Under the pieces are notes generated by a model that ran no database searches, was not told the DNA's origin, and saw only the letters and a list, made by a program, of their open reading frames with translations. Position numbers and translations under genes: made by a program. A stretch of DNA of 64,000 nt from positions 27,582-91,581 of the forward strand of contig JACAFG010000005.1 in NCBI GenBank assembly GCA_019352195.1. The letters are read 5' to 3'. Within the stretch, counting starts at the first letter, position 1, and every line of letters begins with the position of its first letter. The DNA is from Candidatus Saccharimonadota bacterium (GTDB lineage: Bacteria > Patescibacteriota > Saccharimonadia > UBA4664). Of this stretch, positions 1,666 to 46,176 are shown piece after piece.

Positions 1666-1726
1666 AGCTAGCCATTATTATACTCCAAGCACAAGCACGT
1701 TGCCAAAATTCTTATTTTGGATCAAA

Positions 1727-2515: not shown

Positions 2516-2623
2516 ACAGTTGTCCAAGCTATAAGTTTGGTAGTGTTGTAAAGATAGCTTGACCCAGTCATTCCGCTTATGTTAATTTGTTTACATAAAG
2601 GGTAAGGGTTAAAAAGGGAAAAT

Positions 2624-3784: not shown

Positions 3785-3854
3785 GGACGTCCGGCCGACG
3801 GGTCGGCCGGCATAGATGATCCCGATATTACGACCCCCCTTAAACCCCAACTCG

Positions 3855-4907: not shown

Positions 4908-5947
4908 TGACGACGAATATGTTTCATTCACGCATTCGTAACAAACTGGTAGCTGCGGCGGCCGCGTTAATCGTATTCTCGCCGCTCACGGCCGACGCGG
5001 CGGGGTTAACGGCGCGCTCCGATGTTATGGGAACGTCGGAGGCCGGTATCAGCACCACACACATTATTTCGATGACAACGGCCACCGCGGCCAGTATTGG
5101 TTCAATTGGCTTTTTGATGTGCACTACTTCGTCCGGTGCGTGTACCGTACCTTCAGGACTGGTAACTATCAGTGCTACGTTGTCAGCCCAGAGTGGCACC
5201 GGTGGGACCGGGTTTACACTGAACGCAACCACCAACGGTGCGCCCTATATAACCCGCACGGCAGCGGCCATTGCGGCTAGTGTTCCGCTTAGCTATACAT
5301 TGTCGAACGTTACTAACCCAACCGCTACTGATACCACGTTTTATATCCGTATTACGACCTATACCGGCTCGGACGGAGCAACCGGCGCCACTGATACCGG
5401 CCAGATTGCCGCTTCAACCGCGACGCCAATTCAGCTGACCGGGGTAACCCCGCCAATTTTGGTATTTTGCGTCGGTACGAGTATCCCGACCGACTGTACG
5501 AGTGCCACGGGGAATACCATCGACTTCGGTGATTTCTCGCCGGCTAGCACCAACATCGGAACCAGCGTGATGCAGGCGCAAACCAACGCGGCTAACGGCT
5601 ATACCATAACCGTAAACGGCACCACGCTGTCGTCCGGTACCAATACGATAACCGCTATGAGCGGCGCTGCTAGCACCACCGGATCGAGTCAGTTTGGCCT
5701 TAACTTACGGGTAAATACCGCGCCGGCGGTGGGCGCCGATGTTACCGGACCGGGAAGTGGGGTGCCAGTGTTCAACTACGCGAGTGCCAATAACTATCGT
5801 TTTAATACGGGCGATGTGGTGGCTTCGGCAGCGCTGCCCACGAACGCTAATACCTTTACGACCAGCTATATTGTGAACATTGGCGGAGCTCAGGCGGCGG
5901 GTGTATATACCGCCACCATGACCTACATCTGTACGGCTAGTTTCTAA
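4907..5947 (+). CDS. secreted Ser/Thr-rich surface protein, WxL-like family paralog 4
   Basis: Its ATG overlaps the previous stop (TAATG). Signal peptide ends ADAAG. It has an SSQFGLN motif and a C-terminal MTYICTASF. Confidence 0.7.
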   Translation: MTTNMFHSRIRNKLVAAAAALIVFSPLTADAAGLTARSDVMGTSEAGISTTHIISMTTATAASIGSIGFLMCTTSSGACTVPSGLVTISATLSAQSGTGGTGFTLNATTNGAPYITRTAAAIAASVPLSYTLSNVTNPTATDTTFYIRITTYTGSDGATGATDTGQIAASTATPIQLTGVTPPILVFCVGTSIPTDCTSATGNTIDFGDFSPASTNIGTSVMQAQTNAANGYTITVNGTTLSSGTNTITAMSGAASTTGSSQFGLNLRVNTAPAVGADVTGPGSGVPVFNYASANNYRFNTGDVVASAALPTNANTFTTSYIVNIGGAQAAGVYTATMTYICTASF

Positions 5948-5980: not shown

Positions 5981-7069
5981 GTGAGTATGAAAATCTTAGT
6001 AGTCAAGGTGCGTCTATCCAAAGATGTTACTTATGCTATACTGGCTTTAATGAAGCGGTGGACGATTGGTTTTGTGGTAGCTATGGTTGCTGTTGCGGCA
6101 CCTTGGGCGGCGGCGTTAGCCGCGACGCCTGTGGCGTCGCCAGCTGCCGCTACGGCTAATCCCGGCCAAGGCCTCGAGATCTCGCCGCCGGTGCTCGAAC
6201 TTAACGCTGATCCAGGTCAAACGGTAACGGCGGTGATTCGCGTTCGCAACGTGAGCTCGGGAACGTTGGTTGCGACTGGTAAGGCCGACGACTTTGGCGC
6301 TTCCGGTGAAGACGGTAAGCCGAAGCTGCTGCTGGATGAAACCTCGGCGACGCGCTATTCGCTCAAGTTTTGGGTTGCATCGGTACCAACGTTAATTTTG
6401 GCGACCCAAGAGTTGAAGACTGCCACTGTGCAAATTGTGGTCCCAAAGGACGCTGAGCCGGGTGGTCACTATGGGGTAATTCGCTTTACGGGTACGCCGC
6501 CAAACTTGCAGGGAACCGGAGTATCGCTCTCGGCTAGTGTTGGCACATTAGTATTGCTGCGCGTGAGCGGCGCCATCACCGACAGCGTGAAAGTAGCTAG
6601 CTTTACCACCAATCAAGCGGCAGTCCCGGCCGATGCTAGCCATAAGGCCCAGCCAGCCGGCCTGACCTCGAGTTTCTTTGAGCATGGACCAATTAACTTC
6701 GTACTGCGCATTCAAAATGACGGTACGGTGCACGAGCAGGTGAAGGGCAACATTGTTGTTAAGAACACCTTCGGCAAAACGGTCGCTACTGTTACCGTTA
6801 ATCCCGACGGCGGCAATGTACTCCCCGGGACGATTCGCCGCTTTGAGCAGAGTATGGCCAACAAGCGTATGTTTGGCTACTATAAGGCAACCTTTACCGG
6901 CAGCTACCTCGACGACAACCACAAGCTGGCTTCAACCGTTAGCTTTTGGGTCATTCCGTGGAAACTCATACTCCTCATTATCCTTGGCATTGCGATCTTA
7001 ATCTGGCTGCTGCGCCTGGCCTTCCGTCGCTATAACGCCTTTATTATTGCCCAGGCTCGCAAGCGCTAG
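5981..7069 (+). CDS. DUF916/DUF3324-like (CscA-like) cell-surface protein with C-terminal membrane anchor
   Basis: It has an N-terminal signal sequence. A motif GLEISPPVLELNADPGQTVTAVIRVRNVS follows, typical of DUF916 Ig-like domains. The C-terminus has a TM plus basic tail (WKLILLIILGIAILIWLLRLAFRRYNAFIIAQARKR). The true start may be the internal Met at ~6050. Confidence 0.6.
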   Translation: MSMKILVVKVRLSKDVTYAILALMKRWTIGFVVAMVAVAAPWAAALAATPVASPAAATANPGQGLEISPPVLELNADPGQTVTAVIRVRNVSSGTLVATGKADDFGASGEDGKPKLLLDETSATRYSLKFWVASVPTLILATQELKTATVQIVVPKDAEPGGHYGVIRFTGTPPNLQGTGVSLSASVGTLVLLRVSGAITDSVKVASFTTNQAAVPADASHKAQPAGLTSSFFEHGPINFVLRIQNDGTVHEQVKGNIVVKNTFGKTVATVTVNPDGGNVLPGTIRRFEQSMANKRMFGYYKATFTGSYLDDNHKLASTVSFWVIPWKLILLIILGIAILIWLLRLAFRRYNAFIIAQARKR

Positions 7070-7128: not shown

Positions 7129-8064
7129 GTGCTATCCATGCTAGGCGCTGAACATAATTTGCGTCTGCGAGCGCATTCGCATACTTCGTATCCTGGCTTG
7201 TTATTTGCCTTGTTACTCACTGGTGTAATCGTATTGGGTGCCAGCATTGGCGCCCAGGGAGCGGTGCAAAATCCGCAATCGGGATCGGTTGGGCTTACCG
7301 GCACCGTGCCGGGTCCGGCGCCAACCCAGCCCGGCGTTATTACGAGCCCGAGTTCGGGCAGTCATACTACGTCGAGTCCTATTACCGTGGCAGGGACGTG
7401 TCCGGCCAATACTTTTGTCTTCATCGAGAAAAATGGCGTCCTCGCCGGGCAAGCCGCTTGCAACGGCGGTAGCTTTAGCCTGCAGGCCGACTTGTTTGCT
7501 GGTTCAAATCAGCTGGTGGCGCGCGTCGTGGACGGACTTGGCCAATACGGGCCTGATTCTGCCGCTATTACCGTGGTATACGATCAGCCCACCTCGCAAA
7601 CGGCAGGTATTGCCGTAGGACGCCAACTCTTCATTGAGAGCGGTGCTACCGTCGTCGCCGGTGAACCAAATACGGCTCTAGCGCGCGAGGTAAGGATTGT
7701 GGGTGGTACCGCGCCTTATGCGGTGTCGTGGGACTTCGGTGATGGTTCAAATAGCCTTATGACCGTAGCAGTTGAGGGCCCGGTGAGCGCGCTCCATACG
7801 TATACCTCGCCGGGAACGTATCAAGTGCTGGTTCGGGTTACCGATTCATTGCAAAATGCGGCGTTTATCCAATTGATTACGGTGGTAAATGGCCCGATAG
7901 CAGCGGTAACGGGAAGTAGTACCCAATCGGAGCTACCCGGTTCGCTGGTGGCCGCGTGGCCATTATTAGGTCTGGCAATATTTCTTGTGGGCGCGTTTTG
8001 GTTGGGTGAGCGGCGTGCTATGCACCGTCAGATGCTGCGTGATCGTTTGCGGCCTGTAGTGTAA
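7129..8064 (+). CDS. PKD-domain membrane protein
   Basis: It has an N-terminal TM. A PKD signature is present (YAVSWDFGDGS...HTYTSPGTYQVLVRVTD). A C-terminal TM is followed by a basic tail. Confidence 0.65.
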   Translation: MLSMLGAEHNLRLRAHSHTSYPGLLFALLLTGVIVLGASIGAQGAVQNPQSGSVGLTGTVPGPAPTQPGVITSPSSGSHTTSSPITVAGTCPANTFVFIEKNGVLAGQAACNGGSFSLQADLFAGSNQLVARVVDGLGQYGPDSAAITVVYDQPTSQTAGIAVGRQLFIESGATVVAGEPNTALAREVRIVGGTAPYAVSWDFGDGSNSLMTVAVEGPVSALHTYTSPGTYQVLVRVTDSLQNAAFIQLITVVNGPIAAVTGSSTQSELPGSLVAAWPLLGLAIFLVGAFWLGERRAMHRQMLRDRLRPVV

Positions 8065-8667: not shown

Positions 8668-8684
8668 ATAAAAACGCTTATGAT
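8656..8684 (+). promoter_or_regulatory. sigma70-like promoter TTGTGT-17-TATGAT of the giant surface-protein gene
   Basis: -35 TTGTGT 8656-8661, 17-nt spacer, -10 TATGAT 8679-8684. The same promoter with the same AAACGCTTATGATT spacer/-10 recurs at 14886-14914. Downstream is GGAGA-3nt-GTG. Confidence 0.5.
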
Positions 8685-8713
8685 TGGAACAGTATTTTTG
8701 TGTTTGGAGACCT

Positions 8714-11700
8714 GTGAGCAGACTTTGGCTGTTAAAGCTAAATAAGCGTCCCGCCATAACACGAATCTACACCGCCCTAGCGCTTGCCGGGCTGTTTTGG
8801 GTTGGACTTATCACGCTTAACATACCCACAGCTTCGGCTACTGGTGCAGCGGGAATCTATTCAACCATCAATTACCAAGGGCGTTTGCTGACTTCGACGG
8901 GCGCCGTGGTTCCCGATGGAACGTATAACATGGAATTTCAGATTTGGCAGGACGGCAACGGTTGTGTTACCGGCTGTACTTCGGCCAATGCGTCAACCAA
9001 CAACGGCGGTACGCTTAAATGGACCGAGGACTACGTTTATGGCACCGGCTCTCCAGACAACCGCGTGACGGTGAAAAATGGCTATTTCTCGGTGAGCCTT
9101 GGTTCGATTACATCGCTGTCTAGTGTCAACTTCAACTGGGACACAAACTACCTCACGACTAATATTGGTAATACTTCGACAGCCGCTACCTTTAGCGTGG
9201 CTTCGGGCGATGGATACATGATTCCGTTTAAGCGCCTCAGCGCTAATCCTTATGCCCTTAACTCGTCGCAGCTGGGCGGCCTCACCAGTTCACAGTACAC
9301 GCAGCTCGGCCAGGGTATCCAGGGTGCCGCAACTACCGGTACGACGGCGCTTATTGGCCTCAACCAAACCTCCACCGGTACCATTTTGGACCTGCAAAAA
9401 GGTGGCGCCGACGTACTGCTTATCGACTCAACTGGATCAACTTTGTTCCGTCCCACTACCGACTCGGCTATCGCACTGCAGGTACAAAAAGCCGGTACCA
9501 CCACGACGGTGTTTACGGTAGATTCGTCCAACTCGCGCATTGGCATTGGCACGGCGGCACCAGCCTACGCCGTGGACGCGGTGGGCTCGATTAATGCTTC
9601 CACGAGCCTCAAAGTTGCTGGAACTGATGTTTGTACCACGGCTGGCTGTACCGCTGATCCGGCCTCAGCTATCAAGAACCAAAACAGTGCCCAGCAGACG
9701 AGTGCCAACTTTTGGATTTCAGGCAGCGGACGCGCTGATACAAGTATTCTCACCCCTGGACTCGATACCGCCACTGGTGTTGCCCTTGCGATTGGAACCA
9801 CGAATGCTACGAGTATTAACCTCAACGAGAGCACCAATGTAGCCACGGGCAAAACTTTTACCACAAACGGCAGTGGTTTTGACGCTACCGGTAAACTTGG
9901 CATTGGCACTACCAGCCCGGCGGCCAACCTGGACGTACACAGTACCGCCACGACTGGAAATGCGCTGAGCGTTACGGCGAACAACCTAACCACCGGTATC
10001 GCCGTCAATGTCTCCAGTAGCCCTACCGCCGGGACAGGCGGCGCGCTTATTAATGCCAGTCAGTCAGGAACTATAACTACGTCTGGTACCGTGGGTGGCT
10101 CGCTGCTCAATGTGCAGCGCAGTATTACGGCCAATGTGTCAGCAGCAAGTGCGATCACGTTTGATTCTAAAACCACATCTTCGAGCTACACGTGGTCGCA
10201 CACCGTAGCCAGCCAAACGAACCGAATTTTAATTGTGGAATGTGATTCTTCGAGTGCAGCCACTAGTGCTACCTATAACGGCGTTGCTATGACTTTGATT
10301 GGCACCATCACGAACCCATCGAACCCATCAGCGTTAACCTTCTGGAAGCTCCTTGCTCCGGCCACTGGAACTCACGCGGTTACTATGGACCAAAACTGCA
10401 ACGTTGGTGCTGCTATAGGTGGCGTTTCCAGTAGTTGGTATAACGTTGATCAGACTACAGGCACAGGGACGTTCAGTAGCAATGACGCGGCGGCTAACAA
10501 TGTCTCGGTCAGCGTGGCATCGTTATTTGGCCAGGTGGTGATTGACGGAGCCGATGCCTACTTAAACGGTTATAGTTCATGGACAAATATTCCTGGCTCG
10601 GGTCAAACTATGCTCCTCAATCCTTCGTTGAGTTACGATTCGGTAGGGGCTAGTTATAAGGCTGGGGCCGCCACCTCAACTACTATGACCTGGAACTTCA
10701 GCGCTGGCGCTGGTGTACATATCTATATCGGTGGTTTTGCGCTTATTCAAGCACCGACTGGTTCCGCGGTAAACCTAGTGGGTTCGATTGTAAACCTTGG
10801 CTCCAACTGCACTAACACCGCGGGCGGATGTGCCGACAACAGTAGTATTTTGAGCCTAAACCAGCAGTACGCTAGTGCTTCAGGCGCTGTGGCAACGTTG
10901 CAGAATGCTGGAACCGGAGATATGGTCGATTTCCTGAACGGCTCATCGAGCATACTATCGGGCTTCGACTCGAGCGGTAACCTGTTTTTCAATAACTCTA
11001 CCTTCAAGTCCACGCTGAGTACGGGTACCCTCTCAGCGCCGCGATCGATCACGTTGCCAGACGCGAGCGGCACGGTGTGTTTGTCGGTAGGTAACTGTAG
11101 TGCAGCGGGTGGGTACATTGTCAATGGCACGAGCTTGCAGGCCAGCTCTAACTTCCATATTTCGGGCAGTGGAACGGCCGACACGAGCCTGTTGACCCCG
11201 ACCTTGGATACGGCGAGTGCTAGTGCATTGTCGATCGGAGTCACTGCAGCTACCACCATCGGCCTCGGCCGTAGCGGCCAAACGCTCAACATTGGCAGCG
11301 ATGCGATTAACCTCAATAACGGCTATTTGAATGTGGCAGGTACCACGTCGGCCACCAATTCGAAAGCATCGCTGGCTGGGACCGTGGCCTCGAGTACTAC
11401 TTCGCAATATGGGTTGGATAACGAAGTGGCCTTTAATCCGCAAGTAGCTATTACCGGCGCGGTGTATGGCAGCGTCAATATTCCCAACTTGTCGGGCAGC
11501 GCTCTGGCTGTTAGTTCGCTGCAAGGCTTTACCGCCGGAGTAAAAGAAACGGGCGGCGTTGGCAATTTTACCGGTACGGTTACGGACGCAATCGGGCTCA
11601 ACATTACCTCACCTCAAATCACGGGTGGTGGCAATAAATTTACCACCTACACGGGAGTCGACGTGGGTGCCAACTCCATTAACGGCGGTAACACCTCCGG

Positions 11701-14700
11701 TATCCTCACGAACAACGGCATCATCGTCGAGAGTATTTCGGCCGGCGCGGGTTCCGGTGGGACGGTTAATAACTACGGTATTAATCTCGCCCAGCCGAGT
11801 GGTAGCGGTACCGGCACGACCAACAACTACGGCATTAACATTCAGGGTGCGGGTGGTGGCTCTAACAACTACTCCATCTACAACCAATCGACGGCGGCCA
11901 GTTACTTCTCGGGCAATGTTGGCATTAACCAACTGACCACCGGCTCCTACAACCTGAATGTAAACGGCACGGCTAACTTTGCGACCAGTATTAATGTGCC
12001 GAGCATTACATCGAGTGCGGGCCTCACCTTGGCGACTACGGGGACGAACGGTCTGACGGCTGATACAGGTGGAGCAGGGACTATCAAAGTTGGTGCGGCC
12101 AACGCCAACAGTATTTTGATTGGAACAGCGACAACAGCCCAGGCATCTGGCGCGACAGGCACTATCTTCATTGGCAACACGAACTCAACAATTGTCGGTA
12201 TTTCGGGTCAAACGGTTGGTGTTGGTTCACCCTCCGGTGGCGCGCTGTTTATTACGGGCGGCGGTGTCAATGTGCAAGGTGCGTCGGCATTGGCGATGCT
12301 TTTCAATGTCACCAACACATCAAACAAGACCATCCTTCATGTCGATAGTAGCGCTAATGTGGTGAGCTTGGGCCAAACTTCAAACCTGACTGGCCAACTG
12401 CAATTTAGTAATGCGACGAACGCGTTTACGTCGACGATTCAGGGTAACACGGCAGCAACGGCGAGCTACACGTCGATTTTGCCCGGCGCGGTAGGGTCGG
12501 CTGGTCAATGTTTGACCGTGGCTAGCGTGGCCTCGACAACGCAAACCCTGGGTTATAGCGCTTGTGGCGGCGGTAGCTACGTAACGTTGCAAGGTGTTAC
12601 GCCCGGCACGGCCGATACTGGTAATCTCAATATTACTGGCACGGGTATCTTTGCTACTCAGATAACTTCGCCGATCGTTAAGACAACGAACCTGCGCCCA
12701 ACGGCCGACGGCACCTCGGCTATTCAATTCCAGAACGCTGCTGGCACCACTAACGTGTTGACGGTTGATACTACGAATAGTCGAATTAACGTAGGTACCA
12801 ATGGCACACCGACTGGGCAATTGTATGTTTCGGGTACTTTGCCGACGGCTGCGGCTGGATCGGTATCAACTGGCTCAGCTCCTAATAACATTTACGTTCA
12901 AGGTCATTACGCCTATACAGCCAACTATAGCTCTAGCACGCTCGGTATTTATGATGTCAGTAACCCCGCCGCCCCTTTCAGTGTAGGGTCGGTCTCTATC
13001 TCCATAGCGACCAATGTCTATGTTCAGGGTCGTTATGCCTATGTTACAAGCCAGGGCAGCGGTGGCATTGTCATTGTTGATGTCAGTAATCCAAGCAGTC
13101 CGATCAGTGTTGGCTCGGTAGCTACGGGGAGTAATCCCAAGAGTATATTTGTACAAGGAAGTTATGCGTACGTAGTCAATAACGGAGCTAGTACCATAAG
13201 CATTGTTGATGTTCACAATCCGGCAAGCCCCACAATCATCGGATCTACGGCTACAGGCCTCAATCCAAGCAGTGTTTATGTCCAGGGCAGGTATGCCTAT
13301 GTGATAAATAATACTGCGAGTACCTTGAGCATTATTGATGTCAACAATCCGGCAAGTCCATCCAGTGTTGGATCGGTAGCTACTGGCTCCAACCCAAATG
13401 CCGTCTTTGTTCAAGATAACTATGCATATGTAACAAATAACAGCGGTGCCGGGATGAGCGTCATTGATGTCTCGGCCCCAAGTGCGCCATCGAGCGTGGG
13501 TACCGTAGCAACCGGTACGTCTCCCAACGGTATTTACGTTCAAGGACGGTACGCCTATGTGGCAAATAGTGGCTCAAACACAATTGGCATTTACGATGTT
13601 GGTGGCGCCTACACGCAGCAACTGGAGGCGGGCGGAGCACAGCTAGGTATGCTGGCCGTGGATGGCAACTCTACGTTGGCTGGAGATGCCTCGGTGCAGG
13701 GCGGCCTGCAGGTAGGGCAGAGCGTCCAAATTGGGGGCGATGCCGGTATTAACGGTGGCTTGTCGGTGGGGGGCTCGGCGTCATTCGATGGTCCCGTGCA
13801 GGTAGGTTCATCGCTTACCGACACGACGCAGGTAAACTTGCAGCTCGATTCGACGAGCTTGTTCGCAGATAGCGGCACTTGCAGCACCACCACTAATCAG
13901 GGTGCCTTGTATTACAATACCAACACCAACGCCATCCGGAGTTGTGTGGGCGGAGCGTGGGAAGACGTGATAACGACGAGTGGTCTTGGCCTGGTATTAT
14001 TTGGTATTGTGCCCGACGGTGTAGCAACAACCGGTGTCGGCGACTTGGCTGGTGCCGGCGGATATAATTCGGGTCCGTGCAAAGTTTACATGAGCGGTAC
14101 GGCAAATATTATTGTCTGGAACTCGTGTACGGCGTACTCGAGTGGCCGCAAAGTGGCGGTGGCCGCCGGTACAGCGACGGTGAGTTCGAGCACGAGTGTC
14201 TTCCAAAACTTGTGTATCAATACATCGGGCGTGGCGGCGCTGGTGGGAACGGCTAACGCCACAGAAACTACCGCTGGCCTGTTCCCGGCCTTTTCACCGA
14301 GCGCACCAATACTGTGTTTGGCTACCATAAAAACGGCGACGGTAGCGAATAAAGTGGCGGCAATTTACGATACGCGCGTATATACCACCGATGACAAGAC
14401 CATTGCGACCATTGCAACTACTACCGGCCTTGGATCGATGGTCACAAACAACGGCACCCTCGGTCGCTATGCACCCACGAGTGCGGTAACCAACTCAATT
14501 ATGGGCGTGGTGGTGGCCTATAGCGGCACGGTGAGTACGGCAACGCCGAATGCGATTATTGTTACCTATGGTCCAGTGGCCATTAAAGGCACGGGTACTT
14601 CTGGCACGATTGCCCAGATGATTGAATGGGGTGCGGCCAACGGTTATGCCACCACGGTGGCGGCGGCGACGACGGCCACCAACCCTTATACGTATGCTGG

Positions 14701-14794
14701 TGTGGCCCAAAATACCAATGGTACCGTAGCGGCAGGCTGTGCTGTGTACACGGCATGTAGTGGGTCGTTGTTTACTACTTTTGCGCCAAGATAA
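8714..14794 (+). CDS. giant secreted cell-surface protein with LVIVD beta-propeller repeats
   Basis: The ORF track gives 8684..14794 (2036 aa) from a TTG that lies upstream of the predicted transcription start site (TSS). The likely start is GTG 8714, preceded by GGAGA, giving MSRLWLLKLNKRP... plus a hydrophobic core and ASA cleavage site. Seven tandem ~40-aa LVIVD-type repeats (YVQGRYAYV...IVDVSNP) lie at ~12890-13600. The protein is T/S/G/A-rich, with GIGTTSPAANLDV tail-fibre-like motifs. Confidence 0.8.
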   Translation: MSRLWLLKLNKRPAITRIYTALALAGLFWVGLITLNIPTASATGAAGIYSTINYQGRLLTSTGAVVPDGTYNMEFQIWQDGNGCVTGCTSANASTNNGGTLKWTEDYVYGTGSPDNRVTVKNGYFSVSLGSITSLSSVNFNWDTNYLTTNIGNTSTAATFSVASGDGYMIPFKRLSANPYALNSSQLGGLTSSQYTQLGQGIQGAATTGTTALIGLNQTSTGTILDLQKGGADVLLIDSTGSTLFRPTTDSAIALQVQKAGTTTTVFTVDSSNSRIGIGTAAPAYAVDAVGSINASTSLKVAGTDVCTTAGCTADPASAIKNQNSAQQTSANFWISGSGRADTSILTPGLDTATGVALAIGTTNATSINLNESTNVATGKTFTTNGSGFDATGKLGIGTTSPAANLDVHSTATTGNALSVTANNLTTGIAVNVSSSPTAGTGGALINASQSGTITTSGTVGGSLLNVQRSITANVSAASAITFDSKTTSSSYTWSHTVASQTNRILIVECDSSSAATSATYNGVAMTLIGTITNPSNPSALTFWKLLAPATGTHAVTMDQNCNVGAAIGGVSSSWYNVDQTTGTGTFSSNDAAANNVSVSVASLFGQVVIDGADAYLNGYSSWTNIPGSGQTMLLNPSLSYDSVGASYKAGAATSTTMTWNFSAGAGVHIYIGGFALIQAPTGSAVNLVGSIVNLGSNCTNTAGGCADNSSILSLNQQYASASGAVATLQNAGTGDMVDFLNGSSSILSGFDSSGNLFFNNSTFKSTLSTGTLSAPRSITLPDASGTVCLSVGNCSAAGGYIVNGTSLQASSNFHISGSGTADTSLLTPTLDTASASALSIGVTAATTIGLGRSGQTLNIGSDAINLNNGYLNVAGTTSATNSKASLAGTVASSTTSQYGLDNEVAFNPQVAITGAVYGSVNIPNLSGSALAVSSLQGFTAGVKETGGVGNFTGTVTDAIGLNITSPQITGGGNKFTTYTGVDVGANSINGGNTSGILTNNGIIVESISAGAGSGGTVNNYGINLAQPSGSGTGTTNNYGINIQGAGGGSNNYSIYNQSTAASYFSGNVGINQLTTGSYNLNVNGTANFATSINVPSITSSAGLTLATTGTNGLTADTGGAGTIKVGAANANSILIGTATTAQASGATGTIFIGNTNSTIVGISGQTVGVGSPSGGALFITGGGVNVQGASALAMLFNVTNTSNKTILHVDSSANVVSLGQTSNLTGQLQFSNATNAFTSTIQGNTAATASYTSILPGAVGSAGQCLTVASVASTTQTLGYSACGGGSYVTLQGVTPGTADTGNLNITGTGIFATQITSPIVKTTNLRPTADGTSAIQFQNAAGTTNVLTVDTTNSRINVGTNGTPTGQLYVSGTLPTAAAGSVSTGSAPNNIYVQGHYAYTANYSSSTLGIYDVSNPAAPFSVGSVSISIATNVYVQGRYAYVTSQGSGGIVIVDVSNPSSPISVGSVATGSNPKSIFVQGSYAYVVNNGASTISIVDVHNPASPTIIGSTATGLNPSSVYVQGRYAYVINNTASTLSIIDVNNPASPSSVGSVATGSNPNAVFVQDNYAYVTNNSGAGMSVIDVSAPSAPSSVGTVATGTSPNGIYVQGRYAYVANSGSNTIGIYDVGGAYTQQLEAGGAQLGMLAVDGNSTLAGDASVQGGLQVGQSVQIGGDAGINGGLSVGGSASFDGPVQVGSSLTDTTQVNLQLDSTSLFADSGTCSTTTNQGALYYNTNTNAIRSCVGGAWEDVITTSGLGLVLFGIVPDGVATTGVGDLAGAGGYNSGPCKVYMSGTANIIVWNSCTAYSSGRKVAVAAGTATVSSSTSVFQNLCINTSGVAALVGTANATETTAGLFPAFSPSAPILCLATIKTATVANKVAAIYDTRVYTTDDKTIATIATTTGLGSMVTNNGTLGRYAPTSAVTNSIMGVVVAYSGTVSTATPNAIIVTYGPVAIKGTGTSGTIAQMIEWGAANGYATTVAAATTATNPYTYAGVAQNTNGTVAAGCAVYTACSGSLFTTFAPR

Positions 14795-40511: not shown

Positions 40512-41099
40512 ATGGCTGTTTCAATTGAAGATATTAAGAAGCTCCGCGACGCTACGGGCGCCGGGATGATGAAGGCCAAAGAAGCATTGGAGGCTGCCAG
40601 CGGCGACTTCGATAAGGCGATCGAACACTTGCGCAAAAGTGGTGCGGCATCGGCGGCTAAAAAGGCTGACCGTGAAGCACGCGACGGTGTTATCGAAGGC
40701 TACGTTCACTCCGGTCGCATCGGTGTACTCGTGGAAATTAACTGTGAGACCGACTTTGTGGCTCGCACTGAAGATTTCAAAGGCTTTGCCCGCGATATTG
40801 CGATGCACATTGCCGCCGCTAACCCAACCTACGTAACCCCGGCCGAAGTCCCCGCCGACGTTATCGAAGCCGAAAAGCGCGTCTACGCCGAGGACACCAA
40901 GGGCAAGCCGGAGGAAATTGCTGCCAAAATTATTGACGGTAAGCTGGCCAAGTTTTACGAAAACGTTTGTCTGGTCAAGCAGCCCTTTGTCAAAGACCCG
41001 GACAAGAGCATAGAAACGCTCACCGGCGAGCTGGTTGGTAAACTGGGTGAAAACATCGTTATTCGCCGCTTTACCCGCATGGAGCTCGGTCAGCTCTAA
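40512..41099 (+). CDS. tsf: elongation factor Ts
   Basis: IKKLRDATGAGMMKAKEAL signature. A short 195-aa form. Confidence 0.9.
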   Translation: MAVSIEDIKKLRDATGAGMMKAKEALEAASGDFDKAIEHLRKSGAASAAKKADREARDGVIEGYVHSGRIGVLVEINCETDFVARTEDFKGFARDIAMHIAAANPTYVTPAEVPADVIEAEKRVYAEDTKGKPEEIAAKIIDGKLAKFYENVCLVKQPFVKDPDKSIETLTGELVGKLGENIVIRRFTRMELGQL

Positions 41100-41153
41100 G
41101 GCAAAGCTAGACGGATGAGGGGTAATTAACCCCTAAAATCTCTGAGCAACCCT

Positions 41154-41183
41154 CAAAAACACCGCTTGTGGCGGTGTTTTTGG
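41154..41183 (+). terminator. bidirectional terminator after tsf
   Basis: AAAAAC-ACACCGC-ttgtg-GCGGTGT-TTTTTGG. Confidence 0.6.
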
Positions 41184-41227
41184 TATAACGGGCGCCTTGG
41201 TGATAACTTATGCCTAGCAGCAACGAA

Positions 41228-41254
41228 GCCCCACAGCGGGGCACGCCGTGGGGC
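41228..41254 (-). repeat. variant copy of the GC-rich palindromic element (GCCCCAC-13nt-GTGGGGC)
   Basis: It has the same 7-bp stem and the CGAAGCCCCAC flank as the five main copies. It lies downstream of the 41283..41615 ORF. Confidence 0.6.
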
Positions 41255-41282
41255 AGCAATGATGAGGAAGTGCACAGATTGG

Positions 41283-41615
41283 TCAGCTCCCGCGAACCTT
41301 CGAAATTCGCTGAACCGGACCGGTCACAAATGGGAAACTATATTTCAAACTGAACAGCCACATTGGCTCGCCGCATTTGATGACGGTTGCTGCAGGGTGG
41401 TAGGGATCATGATGCGGGCAGAGGAGCTTGACGTCGCTTGCAAATGGAAAGGTGGAAAAGGGGGTTGTCCCAAATGCTTCCCACGTAGTGGCGAGTCTCC
41501 AAATCTTGATTGTGTCGTCATCGCTAAGCTGTATGACATAGCTGCCACTTACGCGGACCCCGGTATCTATTTGATACCTGCCGCAGCCGACGGTGGTGTC
41601 GAGTTGGTTCCTCAC
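41283..41615 (-). CDS. hypothetical ORF with WD40-repeat-like fragment
   Basis: 110 aa. The motif SGSYVIQLSDDDTIKIWRL resembles a WD40 blade. It may be a remnant. Confidence 0.3.
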   Translation of the reverse strand: MRNQLDTTVGCGRYQIDTGVRVSGSYVIQLSDDDTIKIWRLATTWEAFGTTPFSTFPFASDVKLLCPHHDPYHPAATVIKCGEPMWLFSLKYSFPFVTGPVQRISKVRGS

Positions 41616-41683
41616 GTGAGGGCTCTTTTCTATGACGAGGGTTTTGTTTTGGATATAGTGACCCCAGCACGGTTATTTGGCAA

Positions 41684-41720
41684 GGCGAAGCCCCACTGGC
41701 AATGGGGTCGCCGGTGGGGC
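41684..41720 (-). repeat. GC-rich palindromic element copy 1 (terminator-like)
   Basis: GCGAAGCCCCACTGGCAATGGGGTCGCCGGTGGGGC lies immediately 3' of the A1 stop. Confidence 0.75.
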
Positions 41721-41727
41721 AGGATGG

Positions 41728-42447
41728 TCAGTGGGACAGATTGTAGTGCCGGATGAGCGCGCCGGCCAGCGCAGTGAGGACCTCAGTGTCGCCGGTGCTC
41801 AATTGGTGCCCCCCGTTTCGCAACTGGCGCAAGTGGACAGCAATCGACTGGGGCGTGTAGCCGATGAGGTCGCCGAGCTGAGCCAAGCCGCAGGCTTTCA
41901 ACAGCTCCAGTTTACGCCTCGAAATATCGATGCGTGGGTGCTTTATGCGGAACATGTCGTTGCAGGCTCTCGTCAGCGTGATGGCCCGAAACTGGTCCAA
42001 CGGCACATAGATAGCGCCGTTGATGGTGGGGTAAGTGAACCAGTCGGCGCGGTTACCGGCTGCCGAACCCAGTTCCACCCCAGCCCGCGAGAGCAAGCCG
42101 AGGATGATGTTGACGCGGTTGACGCCCAGGCCTCTGATATCGGAAAGCTCCTTACGAGTGATCAACGCACAGTCGGCCAGGGAATTGATCCACAGATGCT
42201 CCTTGAGAGGGCACACCGCCGTGAGCTCCTCACCCTGGAGCTGGCGGCTCAGATCGAGGAGCGGCATGTCAGGGTCAAGCTTAGGCTTGGGCCCGGCCGA
42301 ACTGAAGGCCATCACCCTGTCGTCCACCGCGGCAAAGTAGCGATTGGAGCCATTAGCCGTGAGCACGAGGCGTGGGTCGGACAAAAGTATTTGTGTGACA
42401 GCGTCGGTGTCGTCGGGCTTAACCTCGAGAACAATTCGTGTGCGCAT
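41728..42447 (-). CDS. family A protein 1: tandem alpha-CTD-like helix-hairpin-helix domains
   Basis: 239 aa. The segments ADCALITRKELSDIRGLGVNRVNIILGLLSRAGVELG and ISRRKLELLKACGLAQLGDLIGYTPQSI both match the RpoA C-terminal domain pattern (LSxRxxNxLKxxxIxxIGDL...EL...G...I..L..RG). Confidence 0.7.
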   Translation of the reverse strand: MRTRIVLEVKPDDTDAVTQILLSDPRLVLTANGSNRYFAAVDDRVMAFSSAGPKPKLDPDMPLLDLSRQLQGEELTAVCPLKEHLWINSLADCALITRKELSDIRGLGVNRVNIILGLLSRAGVELGSAAGNRADWFTYPTINGAIYVPLDQFRAITLTRACNDMFRIKHPRIDISRRKLELLKACGLAQLGDLIGYTPQSIAVHLRQLRNGGHQLSTGDTEVLTALAGALIRHYNLSH

Positions 42448-42484
42448 GGGAGCGCCTCTCTGTGAGGAACGATTTTGAAATCAG

Positions 42485-42518
42485 GTTATATCAAAGCAAA
42501 ATAATCCTCAAAAGTCAA
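42485..42518 (-). promoter_or_regulatory. promoter of A1 (extended -10 TGaTATAAC; TTGACT upstream)
   Basis: Minus strand reads TTGACT...TGATATAAC. The -35/-10 spacing is 22, so it is probably extended-minus-10 driven. Confidence 0.4.
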
Positions 42519-42531
42519 TATTTGCGCCCAA

Positions 42532-42568
42532 GACGAAGCCCCACTGGCAATGGGGTCGCCGGTGGGGC
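42532..42568 (-). repeat. GC-rich palindromic element copy 2
   Basis: Identical 37-mer lying 3' of the A2 stop. Confidence 0.75.
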
Positions 42569-42576
42569 AGGGAAGA

Positions 42577-43293
42577 CTAGAGCTTGATATCGCAGTGGGA
42601 GGCAATCTGCCACAAGAAGATGGCTACATGGGGCGGCATATTTTGGCCGTTGGCTTGCAGCTGCCGCGAATTGATAGAGTCTATGGTCTGGCCGCGCAGA
42701 TCTCCCAGCGTACGCAAGTCCAGGGCCGCCAGCGTGGTATCGCTGATGTAGACATCGGGGCGATGCTGATGGTCGAGGGTGCATTTTACCCCGATCCAGC
42801 TGTCAGCCCACCTGAGCGGGATGGCACGAAACTGAGCTGGGGGGACCAATTCATCCAGAAATTTGTAGCCGCTACGCTGGTACTTGGCCAGCGAACCCAC
42901 GGTTACATGCGCTTCTTCGAGCAGGTCGATCAAAGCCTGGAGCTTCATTGGGCCCATACCCAGGAGACGGCCGAGCTCCGCTTCGGTGACGAAGGAACAG
43001 TCGGCGAGCCGATTAATCCACAAATGCCGCTCCATTAAAATGGGGACGGCACTGGATTGGTGGCCGCTCAGGTGGGGCACGAGATCGCTGAACGGTACGT
43101 CGGCCAAGTCGTCGACATAATTATCGACCCGAATATTGTTTTGGGCGCACAGACGCAACAGCTGCGCGCTCAAGCTCTCCTTGCCTAAGGGCGGAGCCGG
43201 CGTTCCTTCCGCCGTGGCTTGGATAGCGGCGCACAATCTCAGGACGAGACGGAAATCAATGTCGGCGGCTGGATTTACCACGGTATTGGTCAT
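42577..43293 (-). CDS. family A protein 2 (paralog of 41728..42447)
   Basis: 238 aa. It shares HLWIN[SR]LADC...GLG and PxxQFRAI blocks with A1. Confidence 0.7.
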   Translation of the reverse strand: MTNTVVNPAADIDFRLVLRLCAAIQATAEGTPAPPLGKESLSAQLLRLCAQNNIRVDNYVDDLADVPFSDLVPHLSGHQSSAVPILMERHLWINRLADCSFVTEAELGRLLGMGPMKLQALIDLLEEAHVTVGSLAKYQRSGYKFLDELVPPAQFRAIPLRWADSWIGVKCTLDHQHRPDVYISDTTLAALDLRTLGDLRGQTIDSINSRQLQANGQNMPPHVAIFLWQIASHCDIKL

Positions 43294-43339
43294 GGCATAC
43301 TCATTTCAAGGTCAGAAGGGATAGGAAGGGAGTAGAAGT

Positions 43340-43368
43340 CTTATAACACTATATTATTCTTAAGTAAA
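43340..43368 (-). promoter_or_regulatory. promoter of A2, TTTACT-17-TATAAG
   Basis: -10 is the complement of 43340-43345; -35 is the complement of 43363-43368. Confidence 0.5.
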
Positions 43369-43383
43369 GAAATGATGGTCCAA

Positions 43384-43420
43384 GACGAAGCCCCACTGGC
43401 AATGGGGTCGCCGGTGGGGC
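43384..43420 (-). repeat. GC-rich palindromic element copy 3
   Basis: Identical 37-mer lying 3' of the B1 stop. Confidence 0.75.
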
Positions 43421-43439
43421 AGGGAACGAGCTAGAGGTG

Positions 43440-44003
43440 CTACTCGAACGATTCGGTATCAGGGTTAAAGGGGACGTAAGTCGTTCTCGCTGCCACGTAC
43501 GTAATGGGATCGAGAGGGTCGGTGATATGGGGTCCCTGCGCTTGCAGCATCGTGGTGAGTATCGAAATAGAGTTGAGCCAATCGTTGGGCACGAAGACGA
43601 TGCTCATATCGTCGTTGCCGCTATCGCGCCGGATAGCCTGTGCAAGCACTTGCATCTCCGCCAGATTCAAGGGATCGACCTGGCAGAAGGCGTCAACGAG
43701 AAACGCTTCGAGCGAGGTACCGAGGAGATCCCAAGTGATGTTCTTGCGGTTCTCGTGCCATAACTGCGCAGACGGTGCTTCGCCTATTCTCGTTTGGCGG
43801 TGATCGTGCAACCGCGGTCTGGTCATGCGGTCGAAGTACTCCCCGATGAGGGGATCATTGACCGCGACGAGGATCGCTACTTCGTGGCGTCCGTAGTTCG
43901 GATTGGTGAAGGTCCAAACTTTATTCACCGGACGAAGTTTGAGGAGCTCTCTGGCGAAGAGCTCAGACCTCATGAGCCGAGATACTTCCTGTTGGGGCGA
44001 CAT
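43440..44003 (-). CDS. family B protein 1 (unknown function)
   Basis: The ORF track gives 43440..44129, but its 5' part runs through the upstream element and promoter. The predicted TSS is ~44060. The start is chosen at MSPQQ (GGAGA-4nt-ATG, 44003). The alternative MTSGDP start is at 44021. The conserved C-terminus is FNPDTESFE. Confidence 0.65.
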   Translation of the reverse strand: MSPQQEVSRLMRSELFARELLKLRPVNKVWTFTNPNYGRHEVAILVAVNDPLIGEYFDRMTRPRLHDHRQTRIGEAPSAQLWHENRKNITWDLLGTSLEAFLVDAFCQVDPLNLAEMQVLAQAIRRDSGNDDMSIVFVPNDWLNSISILTTMLQAQGPHITDPLDPITYVAARTTYVPFNPDTESFE

Positions 44004-44066
44004 AGGGTCTCCAGATGTCATGGGGTGCAAAAGCCGTGGCCGGATGGTCATAGCTTGGTTATGGTA

Positions 44067-44095
44067 TTTATAACTTGAAATGCTAAAAAAGTCAA
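44067..44095 (-). promoter_or_regulatory. promoter of B1, TTGACT-17-TATAAA
   Basis: -10 is the complement of 44067-44072; -35 is the complement of 44090-44095. Confidence 0.6.
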
Positions 44096-44110
44096 TGATT
44101 GAGTGCAAAC

Positions 44111-44147
44111 GACGAAGCCCCACTGGCAATGGGGTCGCCGGTGGGGC
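44111..44147 (-). repeat. GC-rich palindromic element copy 4
   Basis: Identical core lying 3' of the B2 stop. Confidence 0.75.
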
Positions 44148-44157
44148 TGAGTGAAGG

Positions 44158-44733
44158 TCACTCGTGGTCCTCGAAGGAGGCGGTATCTGGATTGAAGCGG
44201 GCGTAGGTCAGGGCCGCCAGGTTGAAGGTCTCGGGTTCGAGTGGGTCGGTGATGGAATCTACTCCCAGTCGGTACAGCTTTTCTGTCAGCACCGAAACAC
44301 AGTCGAGCCAGTTGTTAGGCGCCAGAATGATGCTCATGTTGTGGTTGCCGCTATCGCGCTGCATAACGCCAGCCAGCTCCTGCATCGTCGCCAGATTCGC
44401 GGGCTCGATCTGGCAGAAGGCGCGGACGAGAAACGCTTCGAACGAGGTGCCGAGGAGATCCCAGGTGATGGTCTGGCGGTCCTCTACCCAATACCTATCC
44501 GACGTCAAGTCGTTGTATCGGGTGCGGCGGTGACGGTGAGCCCATGGCAGGGCCAGGCGCTTGAAGTACTCGTCGACCAGGCGGTCGCGGACCGATACGA
44601 GCATGGCCGTTTCCGGGTGTCCGAAGTTGGGGTTGGTAATCGCCCAAACTTTGATCACGGGGTCAAGCTTGAGCAGCTCTCTGGCCATGAGAGCAGGCCC
44701 GGTGAGCCGAGATACTTCCTGTTGAGTCGACAT
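44158..44733 (-). CDS. family B protein 2 (paralog of B1)
   Basis: The 5' UTR-start region ATGACATCTGGAGACCCTATGTCG is conserved at nucleotide level with B1. The protein shares WDLLGTS[LF]EAFLV and FNPDTASFE. The start is chosen at MSTQQ (44733); the alternative is 44751. Confidence 0.65.
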   Translation of the reverse strand: MSTQQEVSRLTGPALMARELLKLDPVIKVWAITNPNFGHPETAMLVSVRDRLVDEYFKRLALPWAHRHRRTRYNDLTSDRYWVEDRQTITWDLLGTSFEAFLVRAFCQIEPANLATMQELAGVMQRDSGNHNMSIILAPNNWLDCVSVLTEKLYRLGVDSITDPLEPETFNLAALTYARFNPDTASFEDHE

Positions 44734-44796
44734 AGGGTCTCCAGATGTCATGAGGTGCGAAAGCCGTGAGCGGGTGCTGACGGCTTGGTTATACAA

Positions 44797-44825
44797 TTTA
44801 TAACTTTAAATTGTTAAAATGTCAA
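44797..44825 (-). promoter_or_regulatory. promoter of B2, TTGACA-17-TATAAA
   Basis: -10 is the complement of 44797-44802; -35 is the complement of 44820-44825. Confidence 0.6.
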
Positions 44826-44840
44826 TGTTTTGGTGCGGAC

Positions 44841-44877
44841 GACGAAGCCCCACTGGCAGTGGGGTCGCCGGTGGGGC
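44841..44877 (-). repeat. GC-rich palindromic element copy 5 (one substitution, CAGT for CAAT)
   Basis: Lies 3' of the B3 stop. Confidence 0.75.
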
Positions 44878-44887
44878 TGAGTGAGGG

Positions 44888-45439
44888 TTACTCGTTGATG
44901 AGGAGGTACCGGGCGAAGTCGCCGGTGCCCGGGCGATAGAGCTGGGGGGCGTTGGCCGCGACGGAGAAGGCGCGGGCCTCGAGCGGATCGACCACCTCCT
45001 GGGTGGGCAGGCGGGCGTCGAGATGATCGGCGTTGTAGCGCCAGAAGGGTGCCACCAAGACGATGTCCAGGCGCCCGAGGAACAGGTCATCGATGAGTGC
45101 CGCGCCTTCATCGCCGTACTGCTGGTAGAGCTCACCGACGAGTTCTTCCCAGCGGATGTCAAGGAGGTCCCAGACGAGTTCGAGGCGGGTTTCGGGCGCC
45201 TCCGTGGTCCAGCTGTGGCCGTTGTCGTCGGAATCGGTATCGACGATGATGTACGGGACGGCCAGCCGTTCCATGTAGACCTCGGCGAGCTCGGGGGTGA
45301 CCTCGACCGCGAGGCGGGCCACGGCATTGTTGGCATCGTTCGGTGCGACGGCGACCCGGCAGATCTCGGTCACGCATTCGAGGCGAAACAGCACCTGGGC
45401 GGCCAGGTGCACGGTGGTGAGTTCGACGCTTGCGGGCAT
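44888..45439 (-). CDS. family B protein 3 (divergent acidic paralog)
   Basis: It shares WDLL..., the [LI]V[FL]V[PA][NP][DF]W block, and the C-terminal YRPGTGDF (cf. FNPDTESF). The start is chosen at MPASVELT (GGAG-6nt-ATG). The alternative MELLMPAS start is at 45451. The ORF-track start at 45550 lies upstream of the promoter. Confidence 0.55.
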   Translation of the reverse strand: MPASVELTTVHLAAQVLFRLECVTEICRVAVAPNDANNAVARLAVEVTPELAEVYMERLAVPYIIVDTDSDDNGHSWTTEAPETRLELVWDLLDIRWEELVGELYQQYGDEGAALIDDLFLGRLDIVLVAPFWRYNADHLDARLPTQEVVDPLEARAFSVAANAPQLYRPGTGDFARYLLINE

Positions 45440-45505
45440 GAGTAACTCCATGTTGTGACCAGGGTGCGAAGCTCGCACCAGTTGAGGGTAGAGCTTGATT
45501 AGGCA

Positions 45506-45534
45506 ATTATAACTATGTTGACACAATAAGTCAA
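45506..45534 (-). promoter_or_regulatory. promoter of B3, TTGACT-17-TATAAT
   Basis: -10 is the complement of 45506-45511; -35 is the complement of 45529-45534. It overlaps, face to face, a plus-strand TTGACA at 45518-45523 upstream of frr. Confidence 0.6.
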
Positions 45535-45615
45535 TACTATTTAACCACAACCGGCAACGATACGCCTCGTTGTGATAAAATTAGTGAGAATTTCAGCTAA
45601 TATCCGAGGTAACAA

Positions 45616-46176
45616 ATGGTACGACAAATTATTGATGGCGCCGATCCAAAAATGCAAAAAGCGATTGAGCACTTAGACTCGGAGATGACCTCGTTGCGAA
45701 CGGGACGAGCTTCGACGTCGCTGGTTGATAGCCTGATCGTTGAGGTTTACGGCGTGCCGCAGCCGCTCAAGGCCATTGCCAGTATTAACACGCCGGACTC
45801 GCGTTCAATTGCCATTACGCCTTGGGACCGGACGAGTTTGCCAATTATCGAAAAAGCCATCCGCGAAAACCAGCAGCTGGGGCTCAATCCGAATAACGAC
45901 GGTACGGTGATCCGCCTCAACATCCCTTCGATGACCGAAGATCGTCGCCGCGAAGTGGTTAAGAGCCTGGGCGCCAAAGTCGAGGATTGCCGCATCGCGC
46001 TGCGCAATATTCGTCACGATACGCTCGGTGAAGTTAAGAAGCTGGAAAAAGCTAAAGAAGCGACGCAAGACGACGTTAAATTTGCTGAAACCGAGCTCAA
46101 TAAGAAAATTGAGACGTTTCAGCGTAAAATTGAAGAATTGGAAGCGGCCAAAACCAAAGAGATTATGTCGGTTTAG
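45616..46176 (+). CDS. frr: ribosome recycling factor
   Basis: 186 aa, with typical RRF conservation (VIRLNIPSMTEDRRRE). Confidence 0.9.
   Translation: MVRQIIDGADPKMQKAIEHLDSEMTSLRTGRASTSLVDSLIVEVYGVPQPLKAIASINTPDSRSIAITPWDRTSLPIIEKAIRENQQLGLNPNNDGTVIRLNIPSMTEDRRREVVKSLGAKVEDCRIALRNIRHDTLGEVKKLEKAKEATQDDVKFAETELNKKIETFQRKIEELEAAKTKEIMSV

Follow-up and report, generated by a model that had tools for sequence, protein, structure and literature searches.

Introduction

In T4-type phages, conserved composite terminator/promoter motifs known as promoter-early stem-loops (PeSLs) flank orphan genes in hyperplastic regions; their stems are generally of the form GGGG...CCCC, and they mediate exchange by homology and give rise to mini-circles (Arbiol et al. 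2010, PMC2839356; Comeau et al. 2014, PMC4122927). Here we analyse a GC-rich hairpin of 37 nucleotides (nt) that follows gene after gene in a 64 kb stretch of DNA from the metagenome-assembled genome of Candidatus Saccharimonadota bacterium (assembly GCA_019352195.1, contig JACAFG010000005.1), which, at its full length, we refer to as the window. The hairpins accompany an array of six minus-strand genes between tsf and frr. Our preferred reading, to which we would give a probability of roughly 0.45, is that the 37-mer is the terminator or insulator half of a junction composed of a stem-loop and a sigma70-type promoter, and that its copies have been homogenised by recombination between cassettes. 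The array itself appears to consist of independently transcribed, fast-evolving accessory genes, assembled as a lineage-specific tandem array in a variable gap between two conserved genes.

Other described systems share parts of this arrangement. The morons of phages, as Hendrix and colleagues reportedly defined them, are autonomous promoter-gene-terminator modules situated between conserved genes. The attC sites of integrons have the organisation R''-L''...L'-R', with RYYYAAC and GTTRRRY cores and lengths of 57-141 nt, and in sedentary chromosomal integrons, such as those with the VCRs of Vibrio, the repeats are near-identical. Among repetitive extragenic palindromes (REPs), those tagged with CGTC have stems of 8-9 bp that start with A-T pairs, and loops of 4-5 nt (Di Nocera et al. 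2013, PMC3733652).

Results

For the element, as for the recombinase genes described below, the part of this genome covered was the window. The 37-mer GACGAAGCCCCACTGGCAATGGGGTCGCCGGTGGGGC occurs five times, at 41684-41720, 42532-42568, 43384-43420, 44111-44147 and 44841-44877 (copies 1 to 5, numbered on the plus strand and read in the sense of the genes on the minus strand), exactly where the first-pass annotation had placed it; judged by 100 shuffles, none is expected by chance. That annotation had counted a single substitution among the five copies; there are in fact two, both A>G, one in the tail at 41685 and the other at the loop edge at 44859, in the loop-closing pair of copy 5. The core GCCCCAC-N(8-22)-GTGGGGC has six sites in the window, all of them within 41228-44877, against 0.01 expected, and these include the variant with 13 nt between the arms that had been reported at 41228-41254. 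From copy to copy the repeat finder gives spacings of 848, 852, 727 and 730 nt. Counting the variant and a decayed hairpin at the other end, there are seven hairpins, five near-identical and internal and two decayed and terminal, all in one orientation and 0.4-0.85 kb apart.

All the repeats fall in a stretch of 4.4 kb whose genes are on the minus strand; it is flanked by tsf (40512-41099, +) and frr (45616-46176, +) and interrupts the conserved chromosomal run rpsB-tsf / frr-uppS-rseP. Along the minus strand the genes are ordered B3, B2, B1, A2, A1, orf6, that is, three members of a family B, two of a family A and one small conserved open reading frame (ORF). The island, with locus tags HJC99_04675 to HJC99_04690, is also present in GCA_017884045.1. 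An independent Logan assembly contig (L001, SRR11551193) ends inside hairpin copy 4, at the equivalent of window position 44118; such a break is expected, because a k-mer assembler here meets a 31-mer repeated five times, and arrays of this kind are usually fragmented in short-read assemblies.

Beyond the window, the exact element, searched as 31-34-mers, had no match in the GTDB representative genomes, the JGI metagenomes or IMG/VR. The looser pattern CGAAGCCCCAC-N(8-22)-GTGGGGC gave more than 120 matches in metagenomes, all of them unrelated generic GC hairpins, many being ordinary terminators, and none had the loop seen here; since all were unrelated, the outer stem motif alone is not diagnostic. 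Within the 64 kb there is no support for a generic, genome-wide terminator.

This distribution bears directly on the possibility that the element is a REP-like or MITE-like mobile palindrome, perhaps a CGTC-tagged REP, spread by a transposase encoded elsewhere. The element does resemble REPs in being a GC-rich imperfect palindrome of REP size (20-40 nt) that lies downstream of genes, is probably transcribed, and carries an unpaired CGTC near one end: four of the five copies, and an orthologous hairpin of a related genome (L133), have the tetranucleotide at a distance of 2 nt from the stem; copy 1 has CGCC and the variant CGTT. However, the copies in the 64 kb form a single island with none outside its 4.4 kb, they share one orientation and make no head-to-head or tail-to-tail dimers, and the geometry of stem and loop differs from that of CGTC-tagged REPs. 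Nor are there target-site duplications at the hairpin copies, or any gene for a recombinase, integrase or transposase (including the Y1/HUH and IS200/RAYT types) in the window, as judged from gene calls over 9.7-54.7 kb and from Pfam searches of the large ORFs at both ends. Given also that the exact element is missing from the three public collections, the REP-like origin raised in the first-pass annotation seems to us very improbable.

Rfam returned no match to the element at gathering thresholds. Below threshold, four copies resemble the Xanthomonas small RNA sX13, since the hairpin can be aligned nearly base for base with its terminal stem-loop, C-rich loop included. One could thus imagine that the 3' untranslated region (UTR) gives rise to small RNAs made of these hairpins, whose CCCC loops pair with G-rich sites in mRNAs, as those of sX13 do. 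The matches score 20-27 bits (best 27.4), where the gathering threshold is 50; outside the stem-loop the model falls on coding sequence; the four matches, being copies of one sequence, are not independent observations; and the loops of the L133 ortholog and of the right-end copy are not C-rich. The resemblance (for example at 43384-43485, -) is probably a convergence of GC terminator hairpins with CCCC loops, and we give the small-RNA explanation a very slim chance.

In the sense strand the element reads, by segments, GCCCCAC-C-GGCGA-CCCCA-UUGCC-A-GUGGGGC, and it folds into 7 bp, a C-A mismatch and a further 4-5 bp around a loop of 5-7 nt, rather than into the stem of 7-10 bp with a loop of 11-17 nt that had been proposed. 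The folding free energy is -22 to -25 kcal/mol for the sense RNA (z = -2.3 to -3.4) and -25 to -28 kcal/mol for the antisense RNA. The first-pass annotation was therefore right that the plus strand gives the slightly better fold of the five copies in terms of energy, but the conservation of pairing across sequence types speaks against the relevance of that fold. We counted pairs on a hand-segmented alignment of four distinct types, namely the five copies, the variant, the decayed copy and the L133 ortholog. On the sense strand 43 of 44 pair positions are standard, several of them G-U, whereas the plus strand has at least one A-C mismatch in each of the four types. Two pairs have changed on both sides, from C-G to A-U, and three further changes turn G-C into G-U on the sense strand but leave A-C mismatches on the opposite one. 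This retention of pairing in the sense orientation favours a fold of the sense transcript.

The diverged hairpins show what becomes of the element outside the array's interior. The variant at 41228-41254 (-), with sequence GCCCCACGGCG-UGCCC-CGCUGUGGGGC followed by UUCGUU, lies 28 nt past the stop codon of orf6 and forms an 11 bp stem with one G-U pair in the sense strand. About 45 nt further on is a canonical bidirectional intrinsic terminator, AAAAACACCGCCACAAGCGGTGTTTTT (41155-41190, unstranded), common to tsf and to the minus-strand array, which marks the left edge of the variable locus; an element of the AAAAACACCGCCACAAGCGGTGTTTTT type also adjoins tsf in L133 and in another related locus, L137. 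In L133, the closest relative that we reached (its frr protein is 89% identical), the same spot holds a homolog of orf6, a hairpin GCCCCAUGGCG-UUGUCAC-CGCUCUGGGGC-AUCGUC (1370-1398) and, about 20 nt later, the tsf terminator. This orthologous hairpin at the same position identifies the variant as the ancestral, or founder, copy, and the several substitutions between the two imply that as a single-copy element the hairpin evolves at an ordinary rate.

At the opposite end, the seventh hairpin, UCACAAC-GA-GGCG-UAUCGU-UGCC-G-GUUGUGG (45545-45575, -), is 31 nt long, retains the inner stem of the 37-mer, and folds with -18.3 kcal/mol (z = -3.15); it is here that two outer pairs have gone from C-G to A-U on both sides, a compensatory change. 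It sits 10 nt upstream of the -35 hexamer of B3, at the right edge of the island, and overlaps the spacer of the frr promoter, and homology to the frr upstream region of relatives begins within it, at 45573. In the founder, the L133 ortholog and the right-end copy alike, the bases of the loop and internal loop differ and only the pairing is kept; among the five internal copies identity is 97% or more.

How unexpected is this identity? The rate of synonymous substitution, dS, is 0.61 between B1 and B2 and 1.0-1.5 for the other paralog pairs, with dN/dS (the ratio of nonsynonymous to synonymous rates) of about 0.5-0.85. With dS between paralogs from 0.6 to above 1, the identity of the hairpins is not neutral. 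The point can be made more sharply at the duplicate junctions of B2 and B1, where 2 differences fall in the 49 positions of the hairpin block and 22 in the 105 of the remaining intergenic DNA (Fisher p = 0.008), so that the claim of a conservation much stronger than neutral change would leave is borne out. In a sliding comparison of the B1 unit with the B2 unit, identity shows peaks over the hairpin, around the ribosome-binding site with the start codon, and within a single stretch of the coding sequence. Moreover, one and the same 37-mer follows genes of two families between which similarity is undetectable. As for controls, no two of the other terminators in the window have a sequence in common, and a second array of paralogs, at 1370-5947 (+), resembles an operon in its tight packing and has no intergenic hairpin shared between its genes. 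That array comprises four paralogous ORFs of 381, 386, 363 and 352 aa, 29-58% identical and without Pfam match; downstream of it come an ORF of 362 aa dissimilar to the array (5981-7069) and then a PKD-domain protein (7129-8064).

These numbers also weigh on the simplest account, in which the hairpins are ordinary terminators that look alike solely through recent tandem duplication, without special selection or continuing recombination. B1 and B2 are indeed clear tandem duplicates with similar promoters and 5' UTRs, and the two types of flanking sequence described below follow position in the array, as duplication would have it. But with dS of 0.61 to more than 1, and a 21% difference in the remaining intergenic DNA, it is very unlikely that descent alone kept 36-37 of 37 positions identical, and the sharing of the element by the unrelated families A and B is also hard to accommodate. 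We regard recent duplication alone as highly unlikely.

The junctions between genes have a constant anatomy. In the sense direction, a stop codon is followed by a gap of 7-19 nt (28 nt after orf6), the hairpin, a tail UUCGUC, a spacer, a sigma70-like promoter, a 5' UTR and the next gene. Copies 1 to 5 start 7, 8, 19, 10 and 10 nt past the stop codons of A1, A2, B1, B2 and B3, respectively. The tail is CUUCGUCUUGG after B1 and A2, CUUCGUCGU after B3 and B2, and CUUCGCC after A1 (copy 1). In the form CUUCGUCUU or CUUCGUCGU it has 5 U in 9 nt and no uninterrupted U tract, and a lenient terminator scan flags two of the five copies, in agreement with the earlier view that this is not a textbook intrinsic terminator. 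Besides the hairpin, the near-invariant block takes in about 4-10 nt on its upstream side and about 8-10 nt on its downstream side. Two types of flank can be distinguished: CYTCACTCA, hairpin and TTCGTCGTYYGCAC after B3 and B2, and YCCCT, hairpin and TTCGTCTTGG after B1 and A2, with a diverged form of the latter after A1. From this distribution it follows that flank type goes with position in the array and not with gene family.

Every cassette has its own sigma70-like promoter-like site (all on the minus strand). Upstream of B2 this reads TTGACA-17-TATAAA (44797-44825) and upstream of B1 TTGACT-17-TATAAA (44067-44095), in keeping with a general form of TTGACA/T, 17 nt and TATAAx at the four junctions; A2 has TTTACT-17-TATAAG (43340-43368) and A1 has TTGACT, a spacer of 18-19 nt and TGATAT/GATATA (42488-42518); B3, at the head of the array, has TTGACT-17-TATAAT (45506-45534), with 11 of 12 consensus matches. 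At the four junctions with clear promoters, the distance from hairpin to -35 hexamer is 21 nt for copies 5, 4 and 3 and 19 nt for copy 2. The sequence of this spacer varies between flank types and its length is kept; more generally, the promoter hexamers are kept as motifs, and in the spacers and UTRs about 21% of positions differ.

An array of genes running in the same direction, each with one imperfect 3' palindrome that contains unpaired bases, and with much greater likeness among the repeats than among the genes, a feature shared with sedentary chromosomal integrons, calls to mind an integron-like cassette array. The hairpins would then be attC-type sites for a tyrosine recombinase encoded elsewhere, as in an attC cluster lacking its integrase. 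The parallel fails on several counts: the core of the element measures 31 nt against the 57-141 nt of attC sites, neither RYYYAAC nor GTTRRRY occurs in the hairpin or its flanks, no integrase gene lies in the window, and each cassette has its own promoter, whereas integron cassettes are mostly promoterless. An attC identity is accordingly extremely improbable. A CRISPR array was also considered and rejected, since the 'spacers' would be protein-coding genes of 690-815 nt with promoters, not uniform non-coding stretches of about 25-70 nt, and no cas domains were found.

We turn to the genes themselves. A1 (239 aa, HJC99_04675, 41728-42447, -) and A2 (238 aa, HJC99_04680, 42577-43293, -) are 36% identical. 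In family B, B1 (187 aa, HJC99_04685, 43440-44003, -) and B2 (191 aa, HJC99_04690, 44158-44733, -) are 58% identical, and B3 (183 aa, 44888-45439, -), the most ancestral-looking member, is 24-28% identical to either. The paralogs thus span a wider range than the identity of about 40-50% first given for them, and the two families are unrelated to each other. The sixth gene, orf6 (110 aa, GTG start, 41283-41615, -), is not called by NCBI, but BLASTP matches it to the ORF at the same position in L133 with E = 3e-9 over 126 aa, and by this comparison it is probably a real, missed small gene. The idea that the segment 41255-41683 is a decayed A or B cassette was dropped, tblastn giving no match and the segment holding this separate small conserved ORF instead.

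For the six array proteins nothing significant was found in Pfam, NCBIfam, PHROGs or PADLOC. For families A and B no relatives were found in the GTDB representatives, IMG/VR or the GenBank phages, nor any PHROG or defence-system relatives; among 5.8 billion proteins they match only themselves and their paralogs, and a profile search adds four remote family B clusters. PDB sequence profiles gave no match for family B, and the model of B3 has what may be, weakly, a nucleotidyltransferase-like fold. Family A shows a weak similarity to the C-terminal domain of the RNA polymerase alpha subunit (alpha-CTD), with Pfam E = 0.004-0.12, all below curated thresholds, the lowest value belonging to the L137 member. 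Its PDB profile matches are likewise weak (alpha subunits at E = 0.04-1.3), with two alpha subunits among the top three and another ranked fourth. The alpha-CTD-like, helix-hairpin-helix similarity occurs possibly twice per protein (window 41728-43293 and L137:9130-9858, both -).

What occupies the gap between tsf and frr changes from relative to relative. On the minus strand, L133 has BtpA and the orf6 homolog, and L137 has a distant family A homolog of 242 aa (9130-9858, -; 22% identical to A1, E = 6e-7) together with an ORF of 59 aa that ends in a canonical terminator. In many bacteria pyrH is located between tsf and frr; it is absent from the gap in all three Saccharibacteria loci (window 40512-46176, L133 and L137), where opposite-strand lineage-specific genes are found instead. 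EF-Ts is short here, at 195 aa.

Homologs of family B in other genomes are single modules whose neighbours differ each time. In JGI metagenome 3300066484, two such genes (L002:1-800 and L003:9906-10720) are 43% identical, while their flanks are 98-100% identical: upstream of the ORF the identity takes in 98 nt of promoter and 5' UTR and breaks off exactly at the ATG, and downstream it runs from the stop codon for about 100 nt, through a 13 bp GC hairpin without U tract and the next promoter. A further locus, L004, has a family B homolog followed by a canonical terminator. The L002/L003 pair may reflect replacement of a cassette, or else very fast coding divergence inside a frozen regulatory frame. 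The two genes could be strain alleles or tandem copies, and either way they would present a hypervariable ORF in such a frame. Hairpins at the equivalent position in L002/L003 and L004 appear to be terminators, which would lend support to a terminator role here.

Elsewhere in the window, an ORF of 2036 aa with LVIVD repeats is followed by cohesin-like and unannotated ORFs (8684-14794, +); this is probably a large surface protein cluster.

Discussion

The reading that we prefer can be put in two steps. First, the sense transcript would fold, a few nt past the stop codon, into an interrupted GC hairpin of 11-12 bp; its anatomy is directly visible, and its function would be to set the 3' end of the mRNA, either as a terminator or insulator with a weak U tract or as a block to 3' exonucleases. 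If the hairpin defines the 3' end, each cassette would be its own transcription unit. Second, the junctions may evolve in concert, cassettes being duplicated, lost and replaced through recombination at the short identical junctions, and exchange of this kind would maintain uniformity in the interior of the array and leave the copies at its two ends free to drift. Since a role at the 3' end needs only the fold, the near-identity in sequence is best explained by concerted evolution. The idea of a recombination or gene-conversion seam, one of several put forward in the first-pass annotation, thus fits the anatomy best: internal copies are near-identical, end copies have decayed, and the cargo of the gap differs in relatives.

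Several observations weigh against this reading. We saw no product of recombination, be it an alternative junction, a difference in cassette number or a circle. A block of identity of 37-49 nt is near the lower limit for RecA-dependent exchange, so that conversion would be inefficient. The flanks of the B2/B1 junction do not look like those of a simple crossover inside the hairpin, but like those of a duplication whose breakpoint was some 22 nt upstream of that element. The U tract is weak, yet the genome does have canonical U-tract terminators, as at tsf, so that termination at the hairpin is putative; and with a canonical terminator following both the founder (after about 45 nt) and the L133 ortholog (after about 20 nt), the hairpin may have another role. 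The evidence on the element comes from one genome, and from 64 kb of it. Finally, a specific binding site would account equally well for the invariance of loop, C-A mismatch and CUUCGUC tail and for the fixed spacing to the -35 hexamer.

It is this last point that makes a sequence-specific recognition site under purifying selection worth considering. A protein or RNase would bind the hairpin, either as RNA in the 3' UTR or as DNA some 60-75 bp upstream of the next promoter, and so co-regulate all cassettes; the alpha-CTD-like protein of family A, encoded in the array itself, is a candidate binder, given its helix-hairpin-helix similarity. Loop, mismatch and unpaired tail are invariant in the five copies, the CGUC of the tail is kept in the L133 ortholog as CAUCGUC, and the distance to the -35 hexamer is held at 19-21 nt despite differing spacers. 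The separate terminators of founder and ortholog mean that the hairpin is not needed for termination there, and the shortness of the block, which makes gene conversion an inefficient means of keeping identity, also favours direct selection. On the other hand, founder, ortholog and right-end copy keep only the pairing, as a purely structural constraint predicts; the predicted B3 promoter has only a decayed copy upstream; and all alpha-CTD matches of the candidate binder are below curated thresholds. On balance we consider a recognition site rather unlikely, and keep to a homogenised terminator or insulator junction.

One may go further and ask whether the junction of hairpin and promoter is a working recombination site. 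It would then belong to a chromosomal system for capturing and shuffling cassettes in an ultra-small episymbiont, without a linked integrase, in which a population-level pool of individually expressed alpha-CTD-like and nucleotidyltransferase-fold-like genes is exchanged at a hot spot between tsf and frr, a cellular counterpart of PeSL and attC systems. We think this stronger proposal decidedly unlikely.

The genomes of Saccharibacteria are tiny, and these bacteria need a bacterial host; the tools of that interaction are likely to be lineage-specific orphan genes, whose acquisition, expression and turnover are poorly understood. The present locus suggests a route. The gap between tsf and frr would serve as a landing pad where promoter-gene-hairpin cassettes accumulate, with a short hairpin that both insulates transcription and supplies homology for duplication and exchange. 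If this is true, the PeSL principle of regulatory junctions that double as recombination seams, so far reported for T4-type phages alone, extends to cellular genomes, and the hairpin offers a sequence tag for fast-evolving accessory genes in the genomes of the candidate phyla radiation. If instead the hairpins are merely terminators kept alike by chance gene conversion, the array is a local curiosity.

How, then, does the locus compare with the systems that it most resembles? With intrinsic terminators the element shares a stable GC hairpin right after the stop codon and a partly U-rich tail (5 U in 9 nt). It differs in having no uninterrupted U tract, unlike the clear terminators of this genome, each of which is unique, and in the invariance of loop and tail, which terminators do not need. 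The likeness to phage morons lies in the modules themselves, since each array gene has a consensus-like promoter and a downstream hairpin and the modules sit between housekeeping genes; morons, however, are not known to be bounded by a shared repeated terminator sequence and are defined in prophages.

The closest described system appears to be that of the PeSL modules. In each, a GC stem-loop adjoins a strong sigma70-like promoter within a single intergenic unit, the genes flanked are orphans of a hypervariable region, and conservation is higher in the junction than in the genes. In both, too, a cassette has its own terminator and promoter (here predicted), and the junctions have been proposed to act as patches of homology for the insertion, deletion and replacement of cassettes. 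The differences are that the array is chromosomal, between tsf and frr, and does not derive from a phage, its genes having no PHROG, phage or IMG/VR homologs; that strict conservation is here limited to the hairpin block of 37-49 nt, as against about 100 bp including the promoter spacer in PeSLs; and that termination and exchange, like any mini-circles, are here putative. We would therefore describe the array as PeSL-like rather than as a member of the PeSL family. By this comparison, the locus seems best classed as a PeSL-like or moron-like regulatory junction in the chromosome of a bacterium of the candidate phyla radiation.

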